Shown here piece after piece: positions 12,357 through 31,759 of a stretch of 64,000 nt of DNA. Each line of letters opens with the position of its first letter. Positions within the stretch are counted from its first letter, which is position 1. Source of the stretch: Escherichia coli. Its GTDB lineage: Bacteria; Pseudomonadota; Gammaproteobacteria; Enterobacterales; Enterobacteriaceae. The notes below the pieces were generated by a model. It ran no database searches. It saw only the letters and a list, made by a program, of their open reading frames with translations, and was not told the DNA's origin. The position numbers and the translations under genes are program-made. Location: NCBI RefSeq assembly GCF_030013205.1, contig NZ_CP122648.1; one strand, 5' to 3'.

Positions 12357-12432
12357 TGGTGGGTCGTGCAGGATTCGAACCTGCGACCAATTGATTAAAA
12401 GTCAACTGCTCTACCAACTGAGCTAACGACCC
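12357..12432 (-). tRNA. tRNA-Lys (anticodon UUU)
   Basis: Reverse complement matches recalled E. coli tRNA-Lys exactly, including encoded CCA. Confidence 0.9.
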
Positions 12433-12465
12433 CTTGCGGGATTATGCTGCTTTAATCATTCAGGA

Positions 12466-12541
12466 TGGTGGGTCGTGCAGGATTCGAACCTGCGACCAAT
12501 TGATTAAAAGTCAACTGCTCTACCAACTGAGCTAACGACCC
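12466..12541 (-). tRNA. tRNA-Lys (anticodon UUU)
   Basis: Identical 76-nt copy of the tRNA-Lys sequence. Confidence 0.9.
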
Positions 12542-12589
12542 ATACGGGTGTTACCTGAAAGATTTCTACTCGAAACCAATCTTTAAGAT

Positions 12590-12660
12590 TGGTGGGTCGT
12601 GCAGGATGACTCGCTTCGCTCGCCCTACGGGCCGTTGCTGGCGCAACGTTATCCTTCACG
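12590..12660 (-). repeat. tRNA-Lys 3'-end-derived remnant repeat (copy 1)
   Basis: First 18 nt (tggtgggtcgtgcaggat) are identical to the tRNA-Lys 3' end including CCA, then the sequence diverges into a segment with small palindromes (gttgc-gtca-gcaac, gccc-gaa-gggc when read on the - strand). Confidence 0.6.
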
Positions 12661-12687
12661 CTTAACATCTGAGTTTGATGTTAAAAC

Positions 12688-12763
12688 TGGTGGGTCGTGC
12701 AGGATTCGAACCTGCGACCAATTGATTAAAAGTCAACTGCTCTACCAACTGAGCTAACGACCC
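12688..12763 (-). tRNA. tRNA-Lys (anticodon UUU)
   Basis: Identical 76-nt copy of tRNA-Lys. Confidence 0.9.
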
Positions 12764-12765
12764 GG

Positions 12766-12841
12766 TGGTGGGTGATGACGGGATCGAACCGCCGACCCCC
12801 TCCTTGTAAGGGAGGTGCTCTCCCAGCTGAGCTAATCACCC
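12766..12841 (-). tRNA. tRNA-Val (anticodon UAC)
   Basis: Reverse complement matches recalled E. coli tRNA-Val(UAC); lies 2 nt from the adjacent tRNA-Lys. Confidence 0.9.
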
Positions 12842-12886
12842 GATACTACGCTGGATACTACAACTAACTAGGTTAGTGGTGGGTCG

Positions 12887-12957
12887 TGCAGGATGACTCG
12901 ACTTCGTCTCGCCCTTCGGGCCGTTGCTGACGCAACGTTATCCTTCACGTTTTACTA
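12887..12957 (-). repeat. tRNA-Lys 3'-end-derived remnant repeat (copy 2)
   Basis: Same structure as copy 1 with a few substitutions (tggtgggtcgtgcaggatgactcgacttcgtctcgcccttcgggccgttgctgacgcaacgttatccttcacg). Confidence 0.6.
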
Positions 12958-12976
12958 CCGCTTCCACCTTAGCGAT

Positions 12977-13052
12977 TGGTGGGTCGTGCAGGATTCGAAC
13001 CTGCGACCAATTGATTAAAAGTCAACTGCTCTACCAACTGAGCTAACGACCC
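12977..13052 (-). tRNA. lysT: tRNA-Lys (anticodon UUU), first gene of the operon
   Basis: Identical 76-nt tRNA-Lys sequence; promoter-like elements lie just upstream. Confidence 0.9.
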
Positions 13053-13216: not shown

Positions 13217-14008
13217 TTACATCGCGTTCAGACGTTTTTGCGCCTGTTTAGCGCCATCAGTACCAGGGTATTTACTGATAACCTGCTGGTATACGGCTTT
13301 CGCTTTTGCGGTGTCACCTTTGTCCTGCATGATGACGCCGACTTTAAACATCGCATCTGCAGCCTTCGGTGACTTCGGATAGTTTTTCACTACCGAAGCA
13401 AAATAATACGCAGCGTCATCTTTTTTACCCTTGTTGTAGTTTAACTGACCCAGCCAATAATTGGCGTTTGGCAGGTAAGTTGAATCAGGGTAATTTTTGA
13501 TGAAATTCTGAAATGCCACCATTGCGTCATCCTGGCGGGATTTATCCTGCACCAGCGCAATAGCTGCATTGTAATCCGTGTTTGCATCACCGCTTTTCAC
13601 CGGCGCGCCAGCATTCGCAGTACCAGCATCAGCTGTCGGCGTCGTTGATGCCGCCGCACCGCTTTGATCGCCGCTGGTTGATTGCGCCGCTGCACCACCG
13701 CTGCTGAGGCTATCGATCTGCAACAGGATCTGCTTTTGCCGCTCCATGACCTGATTCAGTTGATACTGATTTTCCTGAATCTGACCACGCAGGGAATCAA
13801 TATCGGATTGATTATCAGAGAGTTGTTGCTGGAGTTGGGTTAAAAGCTGGCTGTGAGCATTTGAAATACGCTCAAGTTGAGTGACGCGGTCTTCGACCGA
13901 GCCTGAGCCGACACTACTGATTGGTGCCTGAGCAAAAGCGGCCCAGGGGGCCGCTATACCAACCAGTAACGACAGACTCAATAGTTGATGTCTGAAGTTA
14001 CTGCTCAT
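13217..14008 (-). CDS. cpoB: Cell division coordinator CpoB (YbgF), TPR protein
   Basis: 263-aa ORF: signal peptide, Gln/Leu-rich coiled coil, C-terminal TPR repeats; last gene of the tol-pal cluster. Confidence 0.9.
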   Translation of the reverse strand: MSSNFRHQLLSLSLLVGIAAPWAAFAQAPISSVGSGSVEDRVTQLERISNAHSQLLTQLQQQLSDNQSDIDSLRGQIQENQYQLNQVMERQKQILLQIDSLSSGGAAAQSTSGDQSGAAASTTPTADAGTANAGAPVKSGDANTDYNAAIALVQDKSRQDDAMVAFQNFIKNYPDSTYLPNANYWLGQLNYNKGKKDDAAYYFASVVKNYPKSPKAADAMFKVGVIMQDKGDTAKAKAVYQQVISKYPGTDGAKQAQKRLNAM

Positions 14009-14017
14009 GCAATTCTC

Positions 14018-14563
<546 letters not shown>

Positions 14564-19003: not shown

Positions 19004-19297
19004 TTAAAAGAAGAAGAAAATCAGCCCGACAATGAGAACAATATCGGCAAGCAAAGGGCAAAAAATCCCTTGCCAGAGAACCTTCTGCGGACGAAAGCCC
19101 ACGCCGTGAATAACACCAGCACAGACGGCCCACATCAGCAATAAACCATGCCAGATTTCCAGTTCACTGGTCTTCGCGGCGAAACGTGACGGGTCCCAAA
19201 ACATACATCCTGCTAACAGAAGCGCCATCACGAAGGAAAGCGCCCGCAGGGGGCGCTTGTCCATTACCGCATACAAGGTTGCGATAATCTTACTCAT
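19004..19297 (-). CDS. ybgE: Small membrane protein YbgE (cyd operon)
   Basis: 97-aa hydrophobic ORF downstream of cydB/cydX. Confidence 0.85.
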   Translation of the reverse strand: MSKIIATLYAVMDKRPLRALSFVMALLLAGCMFWDPSRFAAKTSELEIWHGLLLMWAVCAGVIHGVGFRPQKVLWQGIFCPLLADIVLIVGLIFFFF

Positions 19298-19410
19298 CAG
19301 ATGTCTTCTTGACCGGCTTTGCCTGATTCGACGTGCTCAAGCGCCAGCGCGGTGATTACCCCAAACGAACAGGCAAGAAGCGTTCCCAGAATCCATGCGA
19401 AATACCACAT
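19297..19410 (-). CDS. cydX: Cytochrome bd-I accessory small subunit CydX (37 aa)
   Basis: Hand-translated from the - strand: MWYFAWILGTLLACSFGVITALALEHVESGKAGQEDI*; below the ORF-track size cutoff; its stop overlaps the ybgE start codon by 1 nt. Confidence 0.85.
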   Translation of the reverse strand: MWYFAWILGTLLACSFGVITALALEHVESGKAGQEDI

Positions 19411-19424
19411 TTTTAGCTCCTTAC

Positions 19425-20564
19425 TTAGTACAGAGAGTGGGTGTTACGTTCAATATCTTCTTTGGTGATACGACCGAACATTTTCCAGTAACACCAGGCG
19501 GTGTAGAGCAGAATGATCGGTACCAGAACCACCGCAACCCAGGTCATGACGTTAAGTGTCAGCTGGCTGGAAGTTGCATCCCACATTGTCAGACTTGCGT
19601 TCATCATGGTGCTGGACGGCATCACAAACGGGAACATTGCGATACCGGCAGTCAGGATGATGCAGGCCAGCGTCAGGGAGGAGAACACAAACGCCCACGC
19701 GGCTTTATCCATACGTGCAGTCAGGATGGTCAGCAGCGGCAGAACCACACCCAGTGCCGGAATAGCCCACAGAATTGGCGTGTTGTTGAAGTTTACCAGC
19801 CATGCGCCAGCTTCACGAACCACTTCTTTATTCAGCGGGTTAGAGGCTGCGTAATGGTCCATTGTCGATTTCACGACATAACCATCGATACCGTACATCA
19901 CCCATACGCCAGCCAGTGCGAAGCAGACCAGTGTCACCAGTGCCGCCACCTGAGCCGTTGCACGGGTACGCAGGTGCAGTTCGCCCACGGTACGCATTTG
20001 CAGGTAAGTCGCGCCCTGAGTAATGATCATTCCTACGCTCACCACGCCAGCCAGCAGGCCGAACGGGTTAAGCAGCTGGAAGAAGTTACCGGTGTAGTAC
20101 AGACGCAGATATTCATCAACGTTGAACGGTACGCCCTGCAACAGGTTACCGAACGCCACACCAATCACCAGCGGCGGAACGAAGCTACCAATGAAGATGC
20201 CCCAGTCCCACATGTTACGCCAGCGGGTTTCTTCAATCTTGGAGCGGTAGTCAAAACCGACCGGACGGAAGAACAAAGATGCCAGCACGAGGATCATCGC
20301 CACATAGAAGCCGGAGAACGCAGCGGCATAGACCATCGGCCAGGCAGCAAAGAGTGCGCCGCCCGCGGTGATCAGCCAAACCTGGTTACCGTCCCAGTGT
20401 GGTGCAATGGAGTTAATCATAATTCGACGCTCGGTGTCGTTACGACCGAGGAAACGGGTGAGCATGCCCACCCCCATGTCGAAACCGTCAGTGACTGCAA
20501 AACCAATCAGCAGAACGCCAACCAGCAGCCACCAGATAAAACGCAATACTTCATAATCGATCAT
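19425..20564 (-). CDS. cydB: Cytochrome bd-I ubiquinol oxidase subunit II
   Basis: 379-aa polytopic membrane ORF matching CydB. Confidence 0.95.
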   Translation of the reverse strand: MIDYEVLRFIWWLLVGVLLIGFAVTDGFDMGVGMLTRFLGRNDTERRIMINSIAPHWDGNQVWLITAGGALFAAWPMVYAAAFSGFYVAMILVLASLFFRPVGFDYRSKIEETRWRNMWDWGIFIGSFVPPLVIGVAFGNLLQGVPFNVDEYLRLYYTGNFFQLLNPFGLLAGVVSVGMIITQGATYLQMRTVGELHLRTRATAQVAALVTLVCFALAGVWVMYGIDGYVVKSTMDHYAASNPLNKEVVREAGAWLVNFNNTPILWAIPALGVVLPLLTILTARMDKAAWAFVFSSLTLACIILTAGIAMFPFVMPSSTMMNASLTMWDATSSQLTLNVMTWVAVVLVPIILLYTAWCYWKMFGRITKEDIERNTHSLY

Positions 20565-20579
20565 TTGACGACTCCTGTC

Positions 20580-22148
20580 TTAGCGTGCCGGCTGAGTAGT
20601 CGTGGAAGACTGCTCAAAGTGATAGCGACCGGTTTTCAGGCTGCTTGGGCCGAGGCGTGCATACTTGAACATTAAGAACAATTCTGCCACCAGGAACAGG
20701 GTATACAGGCCGCAAATCAGCACCATTGAGAAGATGAGATCGCCTGCGGTCAGTGACGAGTTCGCCACAGCTGTCGGCAGCACTTCACCGATAGCCCACG
20801 GTTGGCGGCCATATTCAGCCACGAACCAGCCCGCTTCTACAGCAATCCACGGCAGCGGAATACCGTACAGCGCGGCGCGCAGCAGCCATTTTTTCTCGCC
20901 AATGCGGTTGCGGATGACACTCCAGAAAGAGAGCGCGATGATTGCCAGCAGCAGGAAGCCACACGCCACCATGATACGGAACGCGAAGTACAGCGGCGCT
21001 ACACGCGGAATGGAGTCTTTGGTTGCCTGTTGAATCTGCGCTTCAGTCGCATCCGCCACGTTTGGCGTATAGCGTTTCAGCAGCAGACCGTAACCGAGGT
21101 CTTTCTTCATGCTATTGAACTGGTCACGAACCGCCTGGTCGGTAGAACCAGAACGCAGTTGTTCGAGCAGAGAGTACGCCTTCATCCCGTTACGAATGCG
21201 TTCTTCATGCTGCACCATCAGCTCTTTCAGGCCGATAACCGGGGTATCCACGGAACGCGTTGCAATGATGCCCAGTGCGTAAGGGATCTGGATTGCAAAT
21301 TTGTTCGTCTCCTCTTCCTGATCAGGAATGCCGAACAGAGTAAAGGCAGCAGGTGCAGGTTGCGTTTCCCACTCGGCTTCAATAGCAGCCAGTTTGGTTT
21401 TCTGCACGTCGCCCATTTCGTAACCAGATTCATCACCCAGAACAATAACAGACAGAACGGCAGCCATACCGAAGCTGGCAGCGATAGCAAAGGAGCGTTT
21501 AGCGAAGGCGAAGTCACGACCTTTCAGCATATACCATGCGCTGATACCGAGGATGAACATCGCGCCAGTCACATAACCAGAGGCTACAGTGTGAACGAAT
21601 TTCACCTGAGCAACCGGGTTAAGCACCAGCTCGGAGAAGCTCACCATCTCCATACGCATAGTTTCAAAGTTGAAATCGGATGCGATTGGGTTTTGCATCC
21701 AGCCGTTCGCAACCAGAATCCACAGTGCGGACAGGTTTGAACCGAGCGCCACCAGCCAGGTGACACACATATGCTGAACTTTACCCAGACGATCCCAACC
21801 GAAGAAGAACAGACCTACAAAGGTGGATTCGAGGAAGAAGGCCATCAGACCTTCGATTGCCAGCGGCGCACCGAAGATATCCCCTACATAGTGGGAATAG
21901 TAAGACCAGTTAGTCCCGAACTGGAACTCCATGGTCAGACCGGTAGCCACACCCAGAGCGAAGTTGATACCAAACAACTTGCCCCAGAACTTGGTCATAT
22001 CTTTATAAATCTGTTTGCCGGAAAGGACGTAGACCGTTTCCATAATGGCCAGCAGGAACGCCATACCGAGCGTCAGTGGCACAAAAAGGAAGTGGTACAT
22101 CGCGGTCAAGGCAAACTGTAAGCGCGACAGTTCGACTATATCTAACAT
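20580..22148 (-). CDS. cydA: Cytochrome bd-I ubiquinol oxidase subunit I
   Basis: ORF 20580..22151 (MMLDIV...); matches CydA, start at the second Met. Confidence 0.95.
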
Positions 22149-22151
22149 CAT

Positions 22152-22950
22152 GACTCCTTGCTCATCGCATGAAGACTCCGAGAGTGAACCCCGTTAGAAA
22201 GGGTCACACGCATGCCCCAATACAAAATTATTTGCTCGCCTCTATCGTTGCCATTTCATCAAAAGAGGAAAAGACAATGATAAAAAAGTTACAAATATGT
22301 TAATGAATAAACCAAATTGATCCCGTAATTATATTACGCCGCAAAATCCTTACAATAAACAGGTTTTTATTGAGCAAATTTGCATTTTTCGACAGTGATC
22401 AATTTATAGCGAAATTGTCACGATCTCACCAATTTGATCTACGACAATTTATCGTGTTTTGCAGATTTTTTTCAAGAATTAAAAATTGATTTATATCAAA
22501 ACCAACCAAATATGTTAATTATGTATAAACCATAGATCATTGGTGATTTTATTGTTAATTTATTGTGAAATATTTATGCAACACAATTATTACAATGAAA
22601 AGGTATAGATAAAAAACCAGTGTTTTATTTAACAGAACCGCCTTATCCACTTTTTATAATACCAATTGATTAGATTAGCCAATTTGTTGCTATTTTACAT
22701 AACATATTTTTATCAAAGTTAATTGATTGTTGCGTTTATGAGCACCGGCCGTAAGCCCGTTATGTTATTGTTTCATTAGTAATAATCACTTAAATGTATC
22801 GATGAAACAGGTATGACTTAGCGGGAGTGATTGTTTCTGAGTGAACAGAGACCACTTTCGCCTGATAAATGAAAAATGAGCGATTTTTGCAAGTTAGTTT
22901 TTCTATAGCCGAGTACGCTCAGCGCCTCGCTTGATTACAATGAGGTTGCT
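22152..22950 (-). promoter_or_regulatory. Long AT-rich cydAB regulatory region
   Basis: About 800 bp AT-rich non-coding DNA upstream of cydA (a 60-bp sample at 22501-22560 has 14/60 G+C); contains FNR-like palindromes. Confidence 0.7.
22486..22499. promoter_or_regulatory. FNR-type binding site (perfect TTGAT-N4-ATCAA)
   Basis: ttgatttatatcaa matches the FNR consensus exactly; a second imperfect site ttgatctacgacaa at 22434-22447 lies 52 bp away. Confidence 0.5.
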
Positions 22951-22953
22951 GCT

Positions 22954-23898
22954 ATGAGTCCTGATAATATCAGTTCTGCTGTCAATCGCTTCTCAGGTTG
23001 GCCATCTAATGATCCTCTAAAAACAGATAAAGAATCAATGACATCACCCATGACTGTGCAGGTAATAAAGATGATTGCCGCCATCCTTGACCCACATCGG
23101 ATAGTCGTTGGAATCGATACACTTTATACAACGCAGCGCGAAACATTTACCTCAGAGAGTCAACAGCTCATTGAATCAGCATTGCAAACACTTCATGTGA
23201 TGAATTTAAATAACCTGGAAACAAATCTCGATGAGGAAGGTCACTATCTGGCTTTTGGATATAACGTTGACACTCCTGACAGAATAACCGTTTCTGCTTA
23301 TAATGAAAAAAAGCCTGGCTGCTATGGCCAATGTCTTTTAATACAGGATGACGAAACAGACTTATTTAACCTGATAAAAGTTAAAATTTTTGAAGCCAGA
23401 CATAATTATGTCGCTCAATTGATGAGCGATCCGGAATTTATGTTCAAATTTAGTTATAGCGCTCAACAAAATAGATTAGAACCTCATCTTCTGGTTCCCA
23501 CTTATTTCCCTCTAAAAACAAACGAACCGGTTACGCAAGAGGATGTACTGTTACTTTATCGTTTCTTTAAAATGGATGGTGATTTTAATATATTAACATC
23601 AGATGAATACATGAGCATCATGACACCTCTGATGAAGTGTGAGCGCAGCATCCACGACCACAACAGGTATGTGACGGGCAAAGATACCCTTCTTCTGGAC
23701 TATCCTCCTTCTGGTAACCAGATATATTTCCATATTTTTCCTGACGAATCAGCAACACTAGTCCTTTATTTTTCAAACAATGACATTGAATGTTTCGTCT
23801 TTGAAAGAGATATTCCGAGCCAGTATCGCTTTTTCAAAATGTTTACCAATCTGGCACTGGTTATTGATCAGTTAACCGATGCCAATCAAATACTTTAA
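22954..23898 (+). CDS. Hypothetical protein (314 aa), low-GC orphan, no recognisable family
   Basis: Uninterrupted ORF with GAGG RBS 8 nt upstream of the ATG; AT-rich codon usage (spot counts 25/60 and 18/60 G+C) unlike neighbouring core genes. Confidence 0.6.
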   Translation: MSPDNISSAVNRFSGWPSNDPLKTDKESMTSPMTVQVIKMIAAILDPHRIVVGIDTLYTTQRETFTSESQQLIESALQTLHVMNLNNLETNLDEEGHYLAFGYNVDTPDRITVSAYNEKKPGCYGQCLLIQDDETDLFNLIKVKIFEARHNYVAQLMSDPEFMFKFSYSAQQNRLEPHLLVPTYFPLKTNEPVTQEDVLLLYRFFKMDGDFNILTSDEYMSIMTPLMKCERSIHDHNRYVTGKDTLLLDYPPSGNQIYFHIFPDESATLVLYFSNNDIECFVFERDIPSQYRFFKMFTNLALVIDQLTDANQIL

Positions 23899-23978
23899 TT
23901 TTTATATATTCCCTGTGGCAAATATTGCTAAACAATGCCCGGGGATTAATTTTTATTACTCACGGAAAGATTTAAATA

Positions 23979-24401
23979 ATGATCCCATCTCAAATCTCTT
24001 TCAACACCCTTCCTGTCAATGCAACATACGCTTCAGAGACAACAGTTGACACACAAAAATTCTCTGACATCCTCTACTCAGCGGGGTGTTCCCTAAAGGA
24101 TCTGGCTTATCTGAGCAGATGTCTGGCATCAATACATCCGACTATCGCCAAAAACATTTATGAAACAGAAAATCTCAGCGATCAAAAATTACTACATATT
24201 GATTGCCGTAGTACAAATGAAATCAAGATAAATATCTTTTTTGGTCAACAACGAGAAGGATTAATTGAAATTAGTTCTGACACAGTCATTTTTTCGATAC
24301 TGTCTTCATTGATTGACTCCACCATTTCTAAATTTCAACACCAAAACCCCGTTAACGGTTCTGTAAATCCTGACCTATTGTATGAGGATTATACTGATTA
24401 A
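23979..24401 (+). CDS. Hypothetical protein (140 aa), low-GC orphan, no recognisable family
   Basis: ORF 80 bp downstream of the 314-aa ORF on the same strand, similar composition; polar Ser/Thr/Ile/Asn/Pro-rich N-terminus. Confidence 0.5.
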   Translation: MIPSQISFNTLPVNATYASETTVDTQKFSDILYSAGCSLKDLAYLSRCLASIHPTIAKNIYETENLSDQKLLHIDCRSTNEIKINIFFGQQREGLIEISSDTVIFSILSSLIDSTISKFQHQNPVNGSVNPDLLYEDYTD

Positions 24402-24948
24402 ATCCCTCCTGTCGCGAAAAATGGCCTGCGTTATTGCCAGACGTAATAAAACTTTTGATTAACGTTTCTCGTACTGGTAGCACCTTCATGTACTTTTCTT
24501 TTTTACGAAAAATCAAAAGAGCTAACAAAGGTCATAATTCGCATGAATCATTAATTATTTGTTATTTTCAACATTATTTTTACATTAAGCAGAGATGAAT
24601 TGCTGTGAAATTCGACTTAACTTTTATGAAATGCATTTACTCATGGCTAAAGCCACGTCACAAAAATGCAAATTAGAAGTTGATCACAATTATCTCAATA
24701 CATCAAATCAAGTTAATTTTAAAAATTTAACATTCATGACATCAGTTGACATAACACACTGAATTAAAATGAGAATTTGAAAACACACTTTAAACAATCA
24801 TTTCCCGAAAGACATTTTGAAAATAGATCAATTGCAACATTACGGTCAGATAAAGACACTCCTGTGATATTAAACCTGTGCCGTTATGAACGGCCATAAA
24901 TACGACGTGTGTAACTTATTTTACTCTCTGTCTTACAAAGGATTACCC
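24402..24948 (+). promoter_or_regulatory. AT-rich leader / probable promoter region of the glutamate mutase operon
   Basis: 547 bp of AT-rich non-coding DNA directly upstream of the first operon gene; no ORF of 60 aa or more. Confidence 0.4.
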
Positions 24949-25398
24949 ATGAAGAAAGCAACACTTGTGATTGGCGTTATTGGCGCGGACTGCCATGCAG
25001 TAGGCAATAAAGTTCTGGACCGCGTTTTTAGCAACCATGGCTTCAGAGTCATTAATCTGGGCGTAATGGTCAGCCAGGACGAATATATTGATGCGGCCAT
25101 TGAAACTGGCGCTGACGCGATTGTCGTCTCCTCTATCTATGGGCATGGCGATATCGATTGTCTGGGCATGCGCGAACGCTGCATTGAGCGTGGGCTGGGT
25201 AACATCCTGCTCTATGTGGGCGGTAACCTGGTGGTCGGAAAACATGACTTCGCTGACGTGGAAACCAAGTTCAAAGAGATGGGATTTGATCGCGTCTTTT
25301 CCCCAAGTCATGACTTAGAAGATGTTTGTCAGCTGATGGCCCACGATATCAACCAACGTCATGACGTTGATACTCGCATTCTTGAAGAGGCAATCTGA
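24949..25398 (+). CDS. Glutamate mutase sigma (S) subunit, B12-binding (methylaspartate mutase small subunit)
   Basis: Start chosen at [21 protein letters not shown] (AAGGA RBS upstream); DxHxxG cobalamin-binding motif; aligns by eye with recalled Clostridium GlmS/MutS. Confidence 0.85.
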
Positions 25399-26786
25399 TG
25401 CAAATCGTCTCTGTCGATATTGGTTCGACGTGGACCAAAGCAGCCCTCTTCACCCGGGAGGGGGACGCGTTAACGTTGGTTAACCACGTTCTGACCCCAA
25501 CCACCACCCATCATCTGGCGAAGGGGTTTTTCTCCAGCCTGGACCAGGTGTTAAACGTAGATGATGCCCTCCCCCTGTTAAACAGTGGTGAGGTTGCATT
25601 GAAGTATTCCTCCTCTGCCAAAGGTGGGCTGGCGGTTGCCGCAATGGGATTGGTGCCTTCTATCACCCTGGAAACCGCGAAAGTAACCGCTCACTCTGCG
25701 GGTGCTAAAATTGCGCAATATTACGCCTACAAGCTGAACCGCCGTGATATCCAGGCACTGGAAGAAACGCAGCCCGATATTCTCTTGTTCACCGGCGGCA
25801 CCGATGGCGGAGAAGAAAGCTACGGACTGAATAACGCCCGTGTGTTGGCAGAATCCAAACTCGACTGCGCCATTATTTATGCCGGAAACCGGGATATTCA
25901 GGACGAGGTGCAGGAGGTCCTCGGGCATAAAGACCTGACCATCGTCGACAACGTTCTGCCCGATCTTGACCATCCGAACCCTTTAGCCGCACGCCAGGCT
26001 ATTTGCGACATATTCCTTAAACGCATCGTTAAAGGGAAAGGGCTGGATGTCATTGTTGATAAAACAGGCGAAGAACCAATGCCGACACCATGGACGGTCT
26101 TTGAACTGGTTAAGGCAATCAGTAACGTCGATCACAGCTGGAAAGAGTTCATGCTGATCGACATGGGCGGCGCAACCACCGATGTTTATTCCGCCTGTGC
26201 CAACACGCTCTCGCCCGACACCGTTCTACACGGCGTACCGGAACCCTTCGTGAAACGGACGGTGGAAGGCGATCTGGGAATGCGCGTCTCGGCAATGGTG
26301 GTTGGTGAAAGTGCGAAAGAGTTAGTCAATGTGAATTTTGCTCAGCAACCCGCACAGCTGGACGCTTTTTATCATTACCTCCGCCATCTAGTCGCTCATC
26401 CCGACTACTTACCCGCGAATGCAGAAGAAAAATATTTCGATACCGTCCTGGCCGGAGTGTGTGTGGGTTATGCCACCGAAAGACATGCGGGCACCAAAAA
26501 AGAGGTCTGCACCTGCGTCGGCAATGTCGATTTACAGATGGGACGTGATCTGACAACCGTGCGTAAAGTCGTGGGTTCCGGCGGATGGCTCTCGCGTGCC
26601 AGTCAGTTCGATATGCATCACTGGTTGAAATACCGCGAGTTAAACGACGACGGTAAACGCATTCTCTTACCGACCGAATTTGAATATTACCGCGATTCCC
26701 GGGGGCTATTACCACTGCTGGCAAACGTCGCCAGAGTCGATCCGCTGGCCGCCGCGCGCACCAGTATTCAATGCTTAACCCTATAA
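25398..26786 (+). CDS. Glutamate mutase-associated protein GlmL/MutL-like
   Basis: 462-aa ORF lying between the S and E subunit genes, the same order as in the clostridial operon; start overlaps the upstream stop. Confidence 0.7.
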   Translation: MQIVSVDIGSTWTKAALFTREGDALTLVNHVLTPTTTHHLAKGFFSSLDQVLNVDDALPLLNSGEVALKYSSSAKGGLAVAAMGLVPSITLETAKVTAHSAGAKIAQYYAYKLNRRDIQALEETQPDILLFTGGTDGGEESYGLNNARVLAESKLDCAIIYAGNRDIQDEVQEVLGHKDLTIVDNVLPDLDHPNPLAARQAICDIFLKRIVKGKGLDVIVDKTGEEPMPTPWTVFELVKAISNVDHSWKEFMLIDMGGATTDVYSACANTLSPDTVLHGVPEPFVKRTVEGDLGMRVSAMVVGESAKELVNVNFAQQPAQLDAFYHYLRHLVAHPDYLPANAEEKYFDTVLAGVCVGYATERHAGTKKEVCTCVGNVDLQMGRDLTTVRKVVGSGGWLSRASQFDMHHWLKYRELNDDGKRILLPTEFEYYRDSRGLLPLLANVARVDPLAAARTSIQCLTL

Positions 26787-26804
26787 CAATTAAGGCTGCA
26801 ATCA

Positions 26805-28250
26805 ATGGAACTTCGAAATAAGAAATTAACCCATGACGAATTCATGACCGAGCGGCAACAGGTACTGAAAACCTGGGAAACCGGCAAGGATGTTGAAAAC
26901 TTTGAAGATGGCGTTAAATACCAACAAACCATCCCTGAGCATAAACGCTTCTCTCTTGCGCTGCTGAAAGCAGACAAGGAAGGTAAAACCCTTAGCCAAC
27001 CGCGCGCAGGTGTGGCGCTGATGGACGAACACATCGAACTACTGAAAACACTACAAGAAGAGTGCGATCTGCTGCCGAGCACTATCGATGCATATACCCG
27101 TCTGAATCGGTACGAAGAAGCGGCTGTAGGGATTAAAAAATCCATCGAAGCCGGAACCTCTAAACTGAACGGTTTGCCGGTAGTTAACCATGGCGTCGCA
27201 GCTTGCCGTCGCCTCACCGAAGCCCTGCAAAAACCGCTACAGATCCGCCACGGCACGCCAGATGCGCGTCTGCTGGCTGAAATCTCGATGTCCAGCGGCT
27301 TTACCAGTTACGAAGGCGGCGGCATTTCCTACAACATTCCGTATGCCAAACGCGTAACGCTGGAAAAATCGATCCGCGACTGGCAGTACTGCGACCGTTT
27401 AATGGGGATGTATGAAGAACACGGGATCCGCATCAACCGCGAACCGTTTGGCCCACTAACGGGTACGCTGATCCCGCCGTTTATCTCGCACTCTATCGCG
27501 ATCATCGAAGGCTTGCTGGCGCTGGAACAGGGTGTGAAATCTATCACCGTTGGTTATGGACAGGTCGGCAGCCTGACGCAGGATGTTGCGGCGATCCAGT
27601 CTCTGCGTGAACTTGCACACGAATATTTTCAGAGCTATGGCTATACCGACTATGAATTAAGTACCGTGTTTCACCAGTGGATGGGCGGCTTTCCGGAAGA
27701 CGAATCGAAAGCGTTCGCTATTATCTCCTGGGGCGCAGCCGTCGCGGGGATGTCTGGTGCCACCAAAGTCATCACCAAAAGTCCGCACGAAGCCTGGGGT
27801 ATCCCGACTGCCGCTGCCAACATTCAGGGGCTGAAAGCCTCCCGCCAGATGCTCAACATGGTCAACGAGCAGAAATTCCCGCCGTGCCCTGCGGTTGAAC
27901 TGGAAATTGAACTGATTAAGAGCGAGGTTCGCGCAGTACTGAATAAAGTGTTCGAACTGGGTAATGGTGATATTGCGCGCGGTACGGTGCTGGCATTTGA
28001 AGCGGGCGTACTGGATGTGCCGTTTGCACCAGCCGCGTGTAACGCGGGCAAAATTCTTCCGGTCCGTGACAACACCGGCGCGATACGCGTACTGGAAGCC
28101 GGAGCCGTTCCATTGCCAAAAGATATTCTCGACCTCCACCACGATTACGTTGCTGAACGCGCACGCTTTGAAGGACGCCAACCGACATTCCAGATGGTTG
28201 TAGATGACATCAATGCTGTATCCCACAGTAAATTAATAGGAAGACCATAA
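26805..28250 (+). CDS. Glutamate mutase epsilon (E) subunit (methylaspartate mutase large subunit)
   Basis: 481-aa ORF, size and position consistent with GlmE/MutE; TIM-barrel-type sequence. Confidence 0.8.
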   Translation: MELRNKKLTHDEFMTERQQVLKTWETGKDVENFEDGVKYQQTIPEHKRFSLALLKADKEGKTLSQPRAGVALMDEHIELLKTLQEECDLLPSTIDAYTRLNRYEEAAVGIKKSIEAGTSKLNGLPVVNHGVAACRRLTEALQKPLQIRHGTPDARLLAEISMSSGFTSYEGGGISYNIPYAKRVTLEKSIRDWQYCDRLMGMYEEHGIRINREPFGPLTGTLIPPFISHSIAIIEGLLALEQGVKSITVGYGQVGSLTQDVAAIQSLRELAHEYFQSYGYTDYELSTVFHQWMGGFPEDESKAFAIISWGAAVAGMSGATKVITKSPHEAWGIPTAAANIQGLKASRQMLNMVNEQKFPPCPAVELEIELIKSEVRAVLNKVFELGNGDIARGTVLAFEAGVLDVPFAPAACNAGKILPVRDNTGAIRVLEAGAVPLPKDILDLHHDYVAERARFEGRQPTFQMVVDDINAVSHSKLIGRP

Positions 28251-29491
28251 TGAAAATAAAACAGGCCCTGTTCACCGCTGGCTACTCCTCATTCTATTTC
28301 GATGACCAGCAGGCGATAAAAAACGGAGCGGGTCATGACGGCTTTTTTTATACCGGGGAGCCAGTAACACAGGGGTTTAACGCCGTACGTCAGGCCGGGG
28401 AGTGCGTATCGGTACAGTTGATTCTGGAAAACGGCGCGGTCGCCGTAGGTGACTGTGCTGCCGTACAGTATTCCGGGGCAGGTGGTCGCGATCCACTGTT
28501 CCTCGCGGAGCACTTTATTCCGTTCCTCAACGACCATATCAAGCCATTACTGGTAGGCCGCGATGTGGATACTTTCCTGCCGAATGCCCGTTTCTTCGAC
28601 AAATTGCGTATTGACGGCAACTTGCTGCATACCGCCGTGCGCTACGGATTATCACAGGCGCTGCTTGATGCTACCGCGCTGGCAACCGGCCGTCTGAAAA
28701 CTGAAGTGGTCTGTGATGAATGGCAGTTGCCACGCGTGGCGGAATCCATTCCATTATTTGGTCAGAGCGGCGACGATCGATATATCGCCGTCGATAAGAT
28801 GATCCTTAAGGGCATCGACGTGCTGCCCCATGCACTGATTAATAACGTCGAAGAGAAACTGGGCTTTAAAGGTGAAAAACTGCGCGAATATGTCCGCTGG
28901 CTGTCGGATCGTATTCTGAGCAAGCGCACCAGCGCACGCTACCACCCTACCCTGCACATCGATGTATACGGCACTATCGGTCTGATCTTCGATATGGATC
29001 CGCTTCGCTGTGCGCAATACATCGCCAGCCTGGAAAAAGAAGCGCAAGGCCTGCCGCTCTACATTGAAGGTCCGGTCGATGCCGGTAACAAGCCCGATCA
29101 AATTCGCCTGCTGACCGCGATTACCAAAGAGCTGACGCGCCTCGGTTCCGGCGTGAAACTAGTGGCCGATGAATGGTGTAACACCTACCAGGATATTGTT
29201 GATTTCACCGATGCCGCCAGTTGCCACATGGTGCAAATCAAAACCCCGGATCTGGGCAGTATTCACAACATCGTCAATGCAGTTCTTTATTGCAACAGCC
29301 ACAGCATGGAAGCGTACCAGGGCGGCACCTGCAATGAAACTGATGTCAGTGCCCGCACCTGTGTCCACGTCGCCCTTGCCGCTCGCCCCATGCGTATGCT
29401 GGTAAAACCAGGGATGGGCTTTGACGAAGGCCTCGATATCGTCTTCAACGAAATGAATCGTACTATCGCGCTGTTGCAGGCTAAGGATTAA
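28250..29491 (+). CDS. 3-Methylaspartate ammonia-lyase
   Basis: 413-aa ORF (enolase superfamily size), immediately downstream of and overlapping the E subunit gene (TAATG). Confidence 0.8.
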   Translation: MKIKQALFTAGYSSFYFDDQQAIKNGAGHDGFFYTGEPVTQGFNAVRQAGECVSVQLILENGAVAVGDCAAVQYSGAGGRDPLFLAEHFIPFLNDHIKPLLVGRDVDTFLPNARFFDKLRIDGNLLHTAVRYGLSQALLDATALATGRLKTEVVCDEWQLPRVAESIPLFGQSGDDRYIAVDKMILKGIDVLPHALINNVEEKLGFKGEKLREYVRWLSDRILSKRTSARYHPTLHIDVYGTIGLIFDMDPLRCAQYIASLEKEAQGLPLYIEGPVDAGNKPDQIRLLTAITKELTRLGSGVKLVADEWCNTYQDIVDFTDAASCHMVQIKTPDLGSIHNIVNAVLYCNSHSMEAYQGGTCNETDVSARTCVHVALAARPMRMLVKPGMGFDEGLDIVFNEMNRTIALLQAKD

Positions 29492-29494
29492 CAA

Positions 29495-30865
29495 ATGGCT
29501 CGTTCTTTTAAAGTCTTATCGCCTACGGCAATCCTCGGGTATGGATTCCCGGAGGAGAGCTTCCGCAAAGCGATGGCAGAATCGCCCGATCTGATCGCCG
29601 TTGATGCTGGCTCTTCCGATCCTGGCCCCCACTACCTCGGGGCGGGCAAACCGTTTACCGATCGCGCAGGGGTCAAGCGCGATCTGCGCTATATGATCAC
29701 CGCAGGCGTGCAAAATAATATACCGGTGGTGATCGGAACGGCCGGCGGTTCTGGTGCCGCTCCACACCTGGAGTGGTGCCGAGAAATAATTCATGAGATT
29801 GCCCGGGAAGAGCACCTCTCGTTCTCGATGGCGCTGATCCCGGCAGACGTTGACAAAGCCATCGTCCACCAGGCGCTGGATAACGGCAAAATCACGGCGC
29901 TGGATTTTGTCCCGCCGTTAACCCACGACGCGATTGACGAAAGTACGTATATCGTCGCGCAAATGGGCATCGAACCCTTCCAGCAGGCGCTGAAAGAAGG
30001 CGCGCAAGTGGTGCTGGGCGGGCGCGCTTACGACCCGGCCTGCTTTGCTGCGCTACCGATCATGCAAGGCTTTGATGAAGGTCTGGCGCTGCATTGTGGG
30101 AAAATCCTTGAATGCGCGGCAATCGCCGCAACGCCCGGCTCAGGCTCTGACTGTGCGATGGGCATCATTGATGACAACGGCTTTACGCTGAAGACATTTA
30201 ATCCGAAGCGTAAATTTACCGAAACGTCAGCAGCTGCACACACACTGTATGAGAAATCCGATCCCTACTTCCTGCCAGGACCTGGCGGCGTGTTGAACCT
30301 GAAAAGCTGCACATTTAAAGCGGTCAATGACGGCGAAGTGTACGTCAGCGGTTCTAAGCATGAAGAAACGCCGTATTCCCTGAAACTGGAAGGTGCGCGA
30401 CGGGTGGGCTTCCGCTGTCTGACCATCGCCGGAACGCGCGACCCGATCATGATCGCCGGGATCGATAAAATCATCGATGAAGTCAAAACCAGCGTTTCGC
30501 GTAACCTGTCGCTCGACGATGACAGCATTCACATCAATTTCCACCTGTACGGCAAAAACGGGGTGATGGGCGACCATGAACCGATGCAAACTGCCGGGCA
30601 TGAGCTGGGGATTGTCCTTGATGTAGTTGCACCGACCCAGGAAATTGCCAACAGCGTTTGCTCGCTGGTGCGCTCTACCATGCTGCACTACGGCTATGAA
30701 AACCGCATCGCTACCGCAGGTAATCTGGCGTTCCCGTTCTCCCCTTCTGATATTCAGGGCGGGCCGGTATACGAATTTTCCATATATCACCTGATTGAAG
30801 CCAACGACGCTCTGCGTTTTGATTTCCATATTGAACAGGTGACGCCAGAAGGAGTTCAGGCATGA
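29495..30865 (+). CDS. DUF1446 (AtuA-like) family protein, function unknown
   Basis: 456-aa ORF 3 nt after the lyase stop; family assignment from memory of this size class and its usual pairing with a small DUF4387 partner. Confidence 0.55.
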   Translation: MARSFKVLSPTAILGYGFPEESFRKAMAESPDLIAVDAGSSDPGPHYLGAGKPFTDRAGVKRDLRYMITAGVQNNIPVVIGTAGGSGAAPHLEWCREIIHEIAREEHLSFSMALIPADVDKAIVHQALDNGKITALDFVPPLTHDAIDESTYIVAQMGIEPFQQALKEGAQVVLGGRAYDPACFAALPIMQGFDEGLALHCGKILECAAIAATPGSGSDCAMGIIDDNGFTLKTFNPKRKFTETSAAAHTLYEKSDPYFLPGPGGVLNLKSCTFKAVNDGEVYVSGSKHEETPYSLKLEGARRVGFRCLTIAGTRDPIMIAGIDKIIDEVKTSVSRNLSLDDDSIHINFHLYGKNGVMGDHEPMQTAGHELGIVLDVVAPTQEIANSVCSLVRSTMLHYGYENRIATAGNLAFPFSPSDIQGGPVYEFSIYHLIEANDALRFDFHIEQVTPEGVQA

Positions 30866-31061
30866 AACAGTCAATTGTCTCACTGGCGCAAGTCATTCGT
30901 TCGAAAAATGCCGGACCTTACGAACTGGTTTTAGATATTTTATTTAAAACCAAAGAAAACTATGAGCGAGTCAAATCATCAGGGCAATTAACCCCAGAAC
31001 TGATTGGGTGATGCTGCCAACTTACTGATTTAGTGTATGATGGTGTTTTTGAGGTGCTCCA

Positions 31062-31337
31062 GTGGCTTCTGTTTCTATCAGCTGTCCCTCCTGTTCAGCT
31101 ACTGACGGGGTGGTGCGTAACGGCAAAAGCACCGCCGGACATCAGCGCTATCTCTGCTCTCACTGCCGTAAAACATGGCAACTACAGTTCACTTACGCCG
31201 CCTCTCAGCCCGGTACGCACCAGAAAATCATTGATATGGCCATGAATGGCGTCGGATGTCGCGCCAGTGCACGCATTATTGGCGTTGGCCTCAACACGAT
31301 TTTCCGCCACTTAAAAAACTCAGGCCGCAGTCGGTAA
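31062..31337 (+). CDS. insA: IS1 protein InsA
   Basis: 91-aa ORF with zinc-finger Cys residues (CPSCSA...CSHC). Confidence 0.9.
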
Positions 31338-31759
31338 CCTCGCGCATACAACCGGGCAGTGATGTGATTGTCTGCGCTGAAATGGACGAACAGTGGGGCT
31401 ACGTCGGTGCTAAATCACGTCAGCGCTGGCTGTTTTACGCGTATGACAGGATGCGGAGGACGGTTGTGGCGCACGTCTTCGGTGAACGCACTCTGGCCAC
31501 ACTGGAGCGTCTTCTGAGCCTGCTGTCGGCCTTTGAGGTCGTGGTATGGATGACGGATGGCTGGCCGCTGTATGAATCACGCCTGAAGGGAAAGCTGCAC
31601 GTTATCAGCAAGCGTTATACTCAGCGCATTGAGCGGCATAACCTGAATCTGAGACAACATCTGGCAAGGCTGGGACGGAAGTCACTGTCGTTCTCAAAAT
31701 CGGTGGAGCTGCATGACAAGGTCATCGGGCATTATCTGAACATAAAACACTATCAGTAA
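31256..31759 (+). CDS. insB: IS1 InsB frame (expressed as InsAB' transposase by -1 frameshift)
   Basis: 167-aa ORF in the -1 frame relative to insA; slippery A-run (ttaaaaaactc) at about 31311-31321. Confidence 0.9.

Follow-up and report, generated by a model that had tools for sequence, protein, structure and literature searches.

The cyd operon and its translation signals

The stretch of E. coli DNA analysed here (the window, 64,000 bases) carries the genes of cytochrome bd-I on its minus strand. cydA (20580..22148), known from its RefSeq annotation, encodes subunit I, the subunit contacted by CydX (PMC8951039, PMC13189123), and is followed by cydB for subunit II (19425..20564), which is annotated in RefSeq and matches PF02322 with 369.5 bits and NF011579 with 867.9 bits. 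Next comes cydX (formerly ybgT; 19297..19410), the gene of a 37-aa single-helix cytochrome bd-I subunit, and then ybgE (19004..19297), encoding a 97-aa cyd-operon protein of unknown function (PF09600, 116 bits; NF007881, 185.2 bits). Read on the minus strand from 19410, the cydX frame runs ATG TGG TAT TTC ... ATC TGA, with the ATG at 19410..19408 and the TGA at 19299..19297. Its 37 sense codons and stop translate as MWYFAWILGTLLACSFGVITALALEHVESGKAGQEDI.

The stop codon of cydB (TAA, 19427..19425) is separated from cydX by a gap of 14 nt, and within this gap lies the Shine-Dalgarno sequence of cydX, TAAGGAG (19417..19423, minus strand), with a 6-nt spacer to the ATG. At the other end, base 19297 is both the last base of the cydX TGA and the first base of the ybgE ATG (19297..19295), so that the two genes overlap by 1 nt. 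The duplex energies with the 3' end of 16S rRNA were -8.0 kcal/mol for cydA, -6.9 for cydB and -8.4 for cydX, and only -2.4 for ybgE. The ybgE gene differs from that of K-12 at eight bases and encodes an identical protein.

A 25-codon frame with a TTG start (22148..22225, minus strand) ends in a stop that overlaps the ATG of cydA and was examined as a possible upstream open reading frame. It was rejected, since what it reads at its 3' end is simply AAGGAG, the Shine-Dalgarno sequence of cydA, in frame. The scan for terminators and promoters between 18700 and 23000 found no excess over shuffled sequence (6 versus 4.8 and 6 versus 5.1, respectively) and is uninformative on the boundaries of the operon. 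No RNA family overlapping cydX was found in the Rfam scan.

The list of open reading frames with a cutoff of 60 aa contains only two entries at the cydX locus, ybgE and a frame of 426 aa antisense to cydB (19395..20675, plus strand). This second frame is longer than cydB itself (379 aa), covers the first 16 bases of cydX and is unannotated; it is almost certainly a shadow ORF. A track of frames of at least 60 aa thus displays the shadow ORF yet hides the real cydX.

Identity and conservation of the 37-codon frame

The sequence-only reading of this DNA had placed a 37-aa cydX gene at 19297-19410 on the minus strand, between cydB and ybgE and overlapping the latter by 1 nt, and had pointed out that functional small genes are invisible at a cutoff of 60 aa. 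The translation, the solved structures and the RefSeq annotation all agree with this placement, the base common to the two genes is the overlap described above, and cydX is indeed missing from the list of frames. The product is identical at 37/37 positions to chain X ("cytochrome bd-I ubiquinol oxidase subunit X") of PDB entries 6RKO, 6RX4 and seven further entries. Positions 3478694-3542693 of NZ_CP122643.1, the genome of E. coli ETEC4079 from pig faeces in Belgium, differ from the window at one base, and there the RefSeq CDS WP_000270282.1 ("cytochrome bd-I oxidase subunit CydX") corresponds exactly to 19297..19410 on the minus strand in window coordinates. The counterpart in K-12 MG1655, b4515, differs from the window by one synonymous base. 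An 801-base stretch around cydX was found in 5425 of the 5426 complete E. coli genomes, with cydX annotated under the match in 10/10 records among the matches listed.

Profile searches gave the same assignment. The product scored 53.9 bits against Pfam PF08173 (YbgT_YccB; cut-off 26.2, E 1.8e-14) and 70.7 bits against the CydX equivalog of NCBIfam, TIGR02106 (cyd_oper_ybgT; cut-off 31.6, E 9.1e-20), which by these curated cut-offs places it in the CydX family. Like the members of this family, the gene lies directly downstream of cydB in the cydAB operon and on the same strand, and its product falls in the range of about 30-55 aa, with an N-terminal hydrophobic helix that carries Y3, W6 and G9 and is followed by the acidic E25. 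The conserved CydX residues are those named in PMC6005532, and W2, Y3, W6, G9 and E25 are all found in the window. By its identity to chain X, the protein is expected to be a member of the bd-I complex.

Weak matches to the small subunit of the paralogous bd-II oxidase (AppX or CbdX) were also obtained, namely to the CbdX model NF011333 (E 1.3e-4) and to the AppX chains 7OSE_C (E 0.015) and 7OY2_X (E 0.19), and could be read as placing the frame in bd-II rather than bd-I. With 21.7 bits, however, the frame falls well short of the NF011333 cut-off of 57, while it passes that of the CydX equivalog. The genomic location agrees: the frame stands beside bd-I-type cydA and cydB genes and not in an appCB operon, the best model of the adjoining cydB being the bd-I-type NF011579 (867.9 bits versus 718), while a second subunit II model, NF011602, stays below its cut-off (513.7 versus 681). 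As the sequence is moreover identical to the bd-I chain X, the probability that it is the bd-II paralogue is negligible, and the frame is taken as cydX in what follows.

An open frame of this length is by itself within chance. In the 2 kb around cydX there are 36 open reading frames of at least 20 aa, and the RBS scan, in which every possible frame of 10-59 aa from start to stop codon within the window's 7,143 bases of intergenic DNA was scored by the pairing of the 17 nt upstream with the 3' end of 16S rRNA (cydX and ybgU being deliberately left unmasked), yielded 280 candidates. Frames of such sizes are thus common, which is what would be expected if the frame were a chance ORF in a non-coding spacer between cydB and ybgE from which no protein is made. 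The content of the frame is beyond chance because of its identity to the solved chain, the E-values of both profile searches, its conservation with dN/dS below 1 (see below) and its Shine-Dalgarno sequence, which ranked first of the 280 with -8.4 kcal/mol. With the exact protein present in nine solved structures and its biochemistry published (PMC4325964), we regard a chance ORF as having virtually no probability.

The same scan placed second a 23-codon frame with a GTG start (19337..19408, minus strand), which would use the same Shine-Dalgarno sequence and might be proposed as the frame that is translated in place of cydX. It owes this rank to its start, which is only 2 nt after the cydX ATG. 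This GTG frame has no family match, and the substitutions, which fall predominantly at third positions of the ATG frame, and the solved protein fit only the ATG frame. Translation of the GTG frame instead of cydX is therefore very improbable.

The conservation of cydX was explored with a degenerate DNA pattern for M-W-Y-F-x-W-I-L-G, which was scanned in one genome per bacterial species and for which about one chance match was estimated. At least 120 loci from Alpha-, Beta- and Gammaproteobacteria match it. Of the 120 matches listed, 114 are preceded at a short distance by the end of a CydB homologue, with a median of 18 nt between the end of the CydB alignment and the cydX ATG; four of the six loci without an upstream CydB have less than 100 nt of upstream sequence. 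The 119 complete frames among the matches listed are all 30-57 aa long, and at positions that the pattern leaves free they share A13 in 118 and E25 in 117 cases. The Shine-Dalgarno energy in the homologous loci listed has a median of -8.35 kcal/mol and reaches -5 kcal/mol or lower in 97% of them. In ten 37-codon sequences from Enterobacterales, Nei-Gojobori dN/dS values for codons 10-37, which lie outside the pattern, ranged from 0.04 to 0.63, and the differences from the window by codon position 1/2/3 were 44/18/85. The conservation, the dN/dS values below 1 and the dominance of third-position differences together indicate a protein-coding gene under purifying selection, and agree with a published survey that found 306 CydX homologues (PMC4325964).

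Three of the recovered loci deserve a separate description. Two Paraburkholderia loci, L023 (1216..1371) and L108 (8751..8894), hold cydX-like frames (51 and 47 aa) in which the MWYFTWILG motif is complete, and no cydA or cydB was found anywhere in these loci (9.6 and 10.8 kb, respectively); the two frames look like orphan homologues of CydX. The frame in L023 has a stop that overlaps the start of a gene for a P-loop (GTGKT) protein. In L047, which comes from an uncultured symbiont of the genus Paraburkholderia, the first nine codons of the cydX frame after cydB are preserved, and an unrelated sequence rich in arginine follows; the frame has probably become a pseudogene by frameshift, in the reduced genome of a symbiont.

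Taken together, we are close to certain that the 37-codon frame is cydX, which stands third in the cydABX-ybgE operon, after cydB and before ybgE, and encodes a subunit of cytochrome bd-I. Nothing counts against this identification. The gene is already known: it has long been annotated in K-12, has been mutagenised residue by residue and solved structurally, and is called automatically by the NCBI pipeline. It adds little to biology here and serves as a calibration point, or positive control, for the detection of small genes.

Other small genes and features of the window

The sequence-only reading had also suspected that further short genes were missed in the same way, for example around gltA/ybgD or in the AT-rich spacers of the accessory segment, and had proposed a short-ORF search with RBS scoring to find them. 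Hidden small genes do exist in the window, at other places than those suspected. Two lie in the sdhC-gltA gap: ybgU (47358..47465, plus strand), a 35-aa gene upstream of gltA that RefSeq calls "hypothetical protein" in this strain and whose product differs from that of K-12 at a single residue, 33 (K for R), and ybgV (47449..47481, plus strand), a 10-aa gene that overlaps ybgU and is without RefSeq annotation in this strain. For both, epitope tagging and ribosome profiling of start sites have provided experimental support in K-12 (PMC6001520, bioRxiv 10.1101/511675). SdhX, a small regulatory RNA derived from the 3' end of the sucD transcript, lies at 37273..37371 on the minus strand with 99/99 aligned bases identical to K-12; it is absent from the matching RefSeq annotation and from the output of the Rfam gathering scan.

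In the gltA-ybgD gap (48955-49343) the best candidates, 49123..49170 (minus strand, 15 aa) and 49084..49242 (plus strand, 52 aa, GTG start), were rejected as unsupported. Neither has a K-12 counterpart at a blastn E-value of 1e-5, and against strain C4 the sole informative substitution is non-synonymous. The island spacers at 22525-22953, 24402-24948 and 36708-37264 gave only GTG and TTG frames of 12-40 aa with Shine-Dalgarno energies of -4.2 to -6.9, none of them convincing. Neither in the gltA-ybgD gap nor in these spacers did the short-ORF and RBS scan return a candidate that combined an ATG start with strong Shine-Dalgarno pairing. As for the search itself, it succeeded with cydX, but ybgU and ybgV ranked only 35th and 40th of 280 and would be missed. 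RBS scoring alone is therefore insufficient as a detector; homology and profile searches and ribosome profiling are what finds such small genes.

The accessory segment itself, 14.7 kb at 22525..37264, has no K-12 counterpart and stands in place of mngR-mngA-mngB; its boundary (37264/37265) comes directly after SdhX. It contains genes for methylaspartate mutase S, L and E, methylaspartate ammonia-lyase, an AtuA-family and a DUF4387 protein, a dicarboxylate symporter, a class I fumarase, cobO and a LysR regulator, and looks like an island for glutamate fermentation by the methylaspartate pathway. At least 80% of an 18-kb query containing it (window 22000-40000) is covered in 973 of the 5426 E. 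coli genomes. A copy of IS1 (768 bp, 31007..31774), flanked by the 8-bp target duplication ACTGATTG at 30999..31006 and 31775..31782, splits the DUF4387 gene of the island, which is uninterrupted in strain C4.

Several other features were observed outside the island. The tRNA array after cpoB (12357..13052, minus strand) has five genes, four for Lys and one for Val, compared with seven in K-12 and strain C4; the tRNA genes are interspersed with two RtT-like repeats (Rfam RF00391), and the change in copy number looks like the result of recombination among these repeats. A full-length match (142 bits) to the CpoB/ybgF intercistronic RNA thermometer of Rfam (RF02782) spans the pal-cpoB junction at 13979..14117 on the minus strand. 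The fimbrial usher gene ybgQ (49961..52420, plus strand) has an internal stop and is a pseudogene in this strain. At the right end of the window, a remnant of an ISAs1-family transposase (ybfD; 63180..63947, minus strand) likewise has an internal stop.

Proposed function of CydX, the ybgE junction and known systems

Residues 1-24 of CydX carry no charges and have a mean Kyte-Doolittle value of +1.8, whereas residues 25-37 have a hydropathy of -1.2 with four acidic and one basic residue; this points to one transmembrane helix followed by a short acidic tail. Translation would start 14 nt after cydB and use a strong ribosome-binding site of its own. Following the literature, its helix would pack on transmembrane helices of CydA beside haem b558 and the quinol-binding Q-loop, and would be needed for the stable assembly and the activity of cytochrome bd-I. 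CydX was reported to contact CydA TM helices 1, 4, 5, 6 and 7 in the region of haem b558 and the Q-loop, with a mainly structural role (PMC8951039), and deletion of cydX leads to slow growth, sensitivity to reductant and reduced oxidase activity (PMC4325964, PMC6005532). In a cryo-EM study of 2026, two CydX helices form the interface of a bd-I dimer through Met1-Trp2 contacts and a leucine zipper, and Thr10 lines a ubiquinone pocket common to CydX and CydA (PMC13189123). Alanine scanning revealed no single essential residue, and the N-terminal block is required (PMC6005532). Since the window CydX is identical to the protein studied in these papers, the published contacts and the requirement for activity should transfer to it. 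The bd oxidases of some species function without any CydX (PMC13189123, PMC8951039), which argues for a structural or stabilising role rather than a catalytic one.

The junction with ybgE is the only point that is without a match in the accessible cydX literature. The same TGATG or TAATG arrangement was present in the window and in all eight of the Enterobacteriaceae loci recovered (Escherichia albertii, two Citrobacter, three Enterobacter, Superficieibacter and one Klebsiella sp.), and in Rahnella, Yersinia, Providencia, Vibrio and Aeromonas the cydX-ybgE spacing differs by a few bases. Given the near absence of Shine-Dalgarno pairing at ybgE and the overlap of its start codon with the stop of cydX, the gene is probably translated by coupling, that is, by ribosomes that finish cydX. 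In a stronger form of this proposal, synthesis of the uncharacterised membrane protein YbgE would depend strictly on termination at cydX; its amount would then be tied to that of CydX at a constant ratio, and it would serve bd-I as a transient factor in assembly or as a conditional partner. We consider this stronger form rather unlikely. A kanamycin cassette placed between cydX and ybgE gave no bd-I-deficient phenotype (PMC6005532), which counts against a functional weight of the coupling, and YbgE is a chain in none of the solved bd-I complexes, which counts against its reading as a bd-I partner.

Compared with known systems, the window CydX is the same protein, at 37/37 residues, as that of E. 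coli K-12 (YbgT, b4515; 6RKO and 6RX4 chain X; WP_000270282.1), and in the K-12 operon, too, cydX follows cydB after 14 nt and shares 1 nt with ybgE. The two strains differ upstream of the cyd operon, where K-12 has mngR-mngAB and the window has the methylaspartate-pathway island. AppX/CbdX (YccB), the small subunit of bd-II, shares PF08173 and the N-terminal MWY..W..G motif with CydX and like it sits beside subunit I (PMC8951039), but has 30 aa and is encoded in the appCBX operon elsewhere in the genome. CydS of the Geobacillus thermodenitrificans bd oxidase is also a single helix at a similar place on CydA (PMC8951039); it comes from the short-Q-loop enzymes and is described as similar but not homologous to CydX (PMC13189123). 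CydH/CydY (YnhF), the fourth subunit of bd-I, is likewise a single-helix small protein that was missed by early annotation (PMC8951039). Unlike cydX, its gene lies outside the cyd operon and outside the window, and the protein binds between CydA TM1 and TM9 and blocks an alternative O2 entry.
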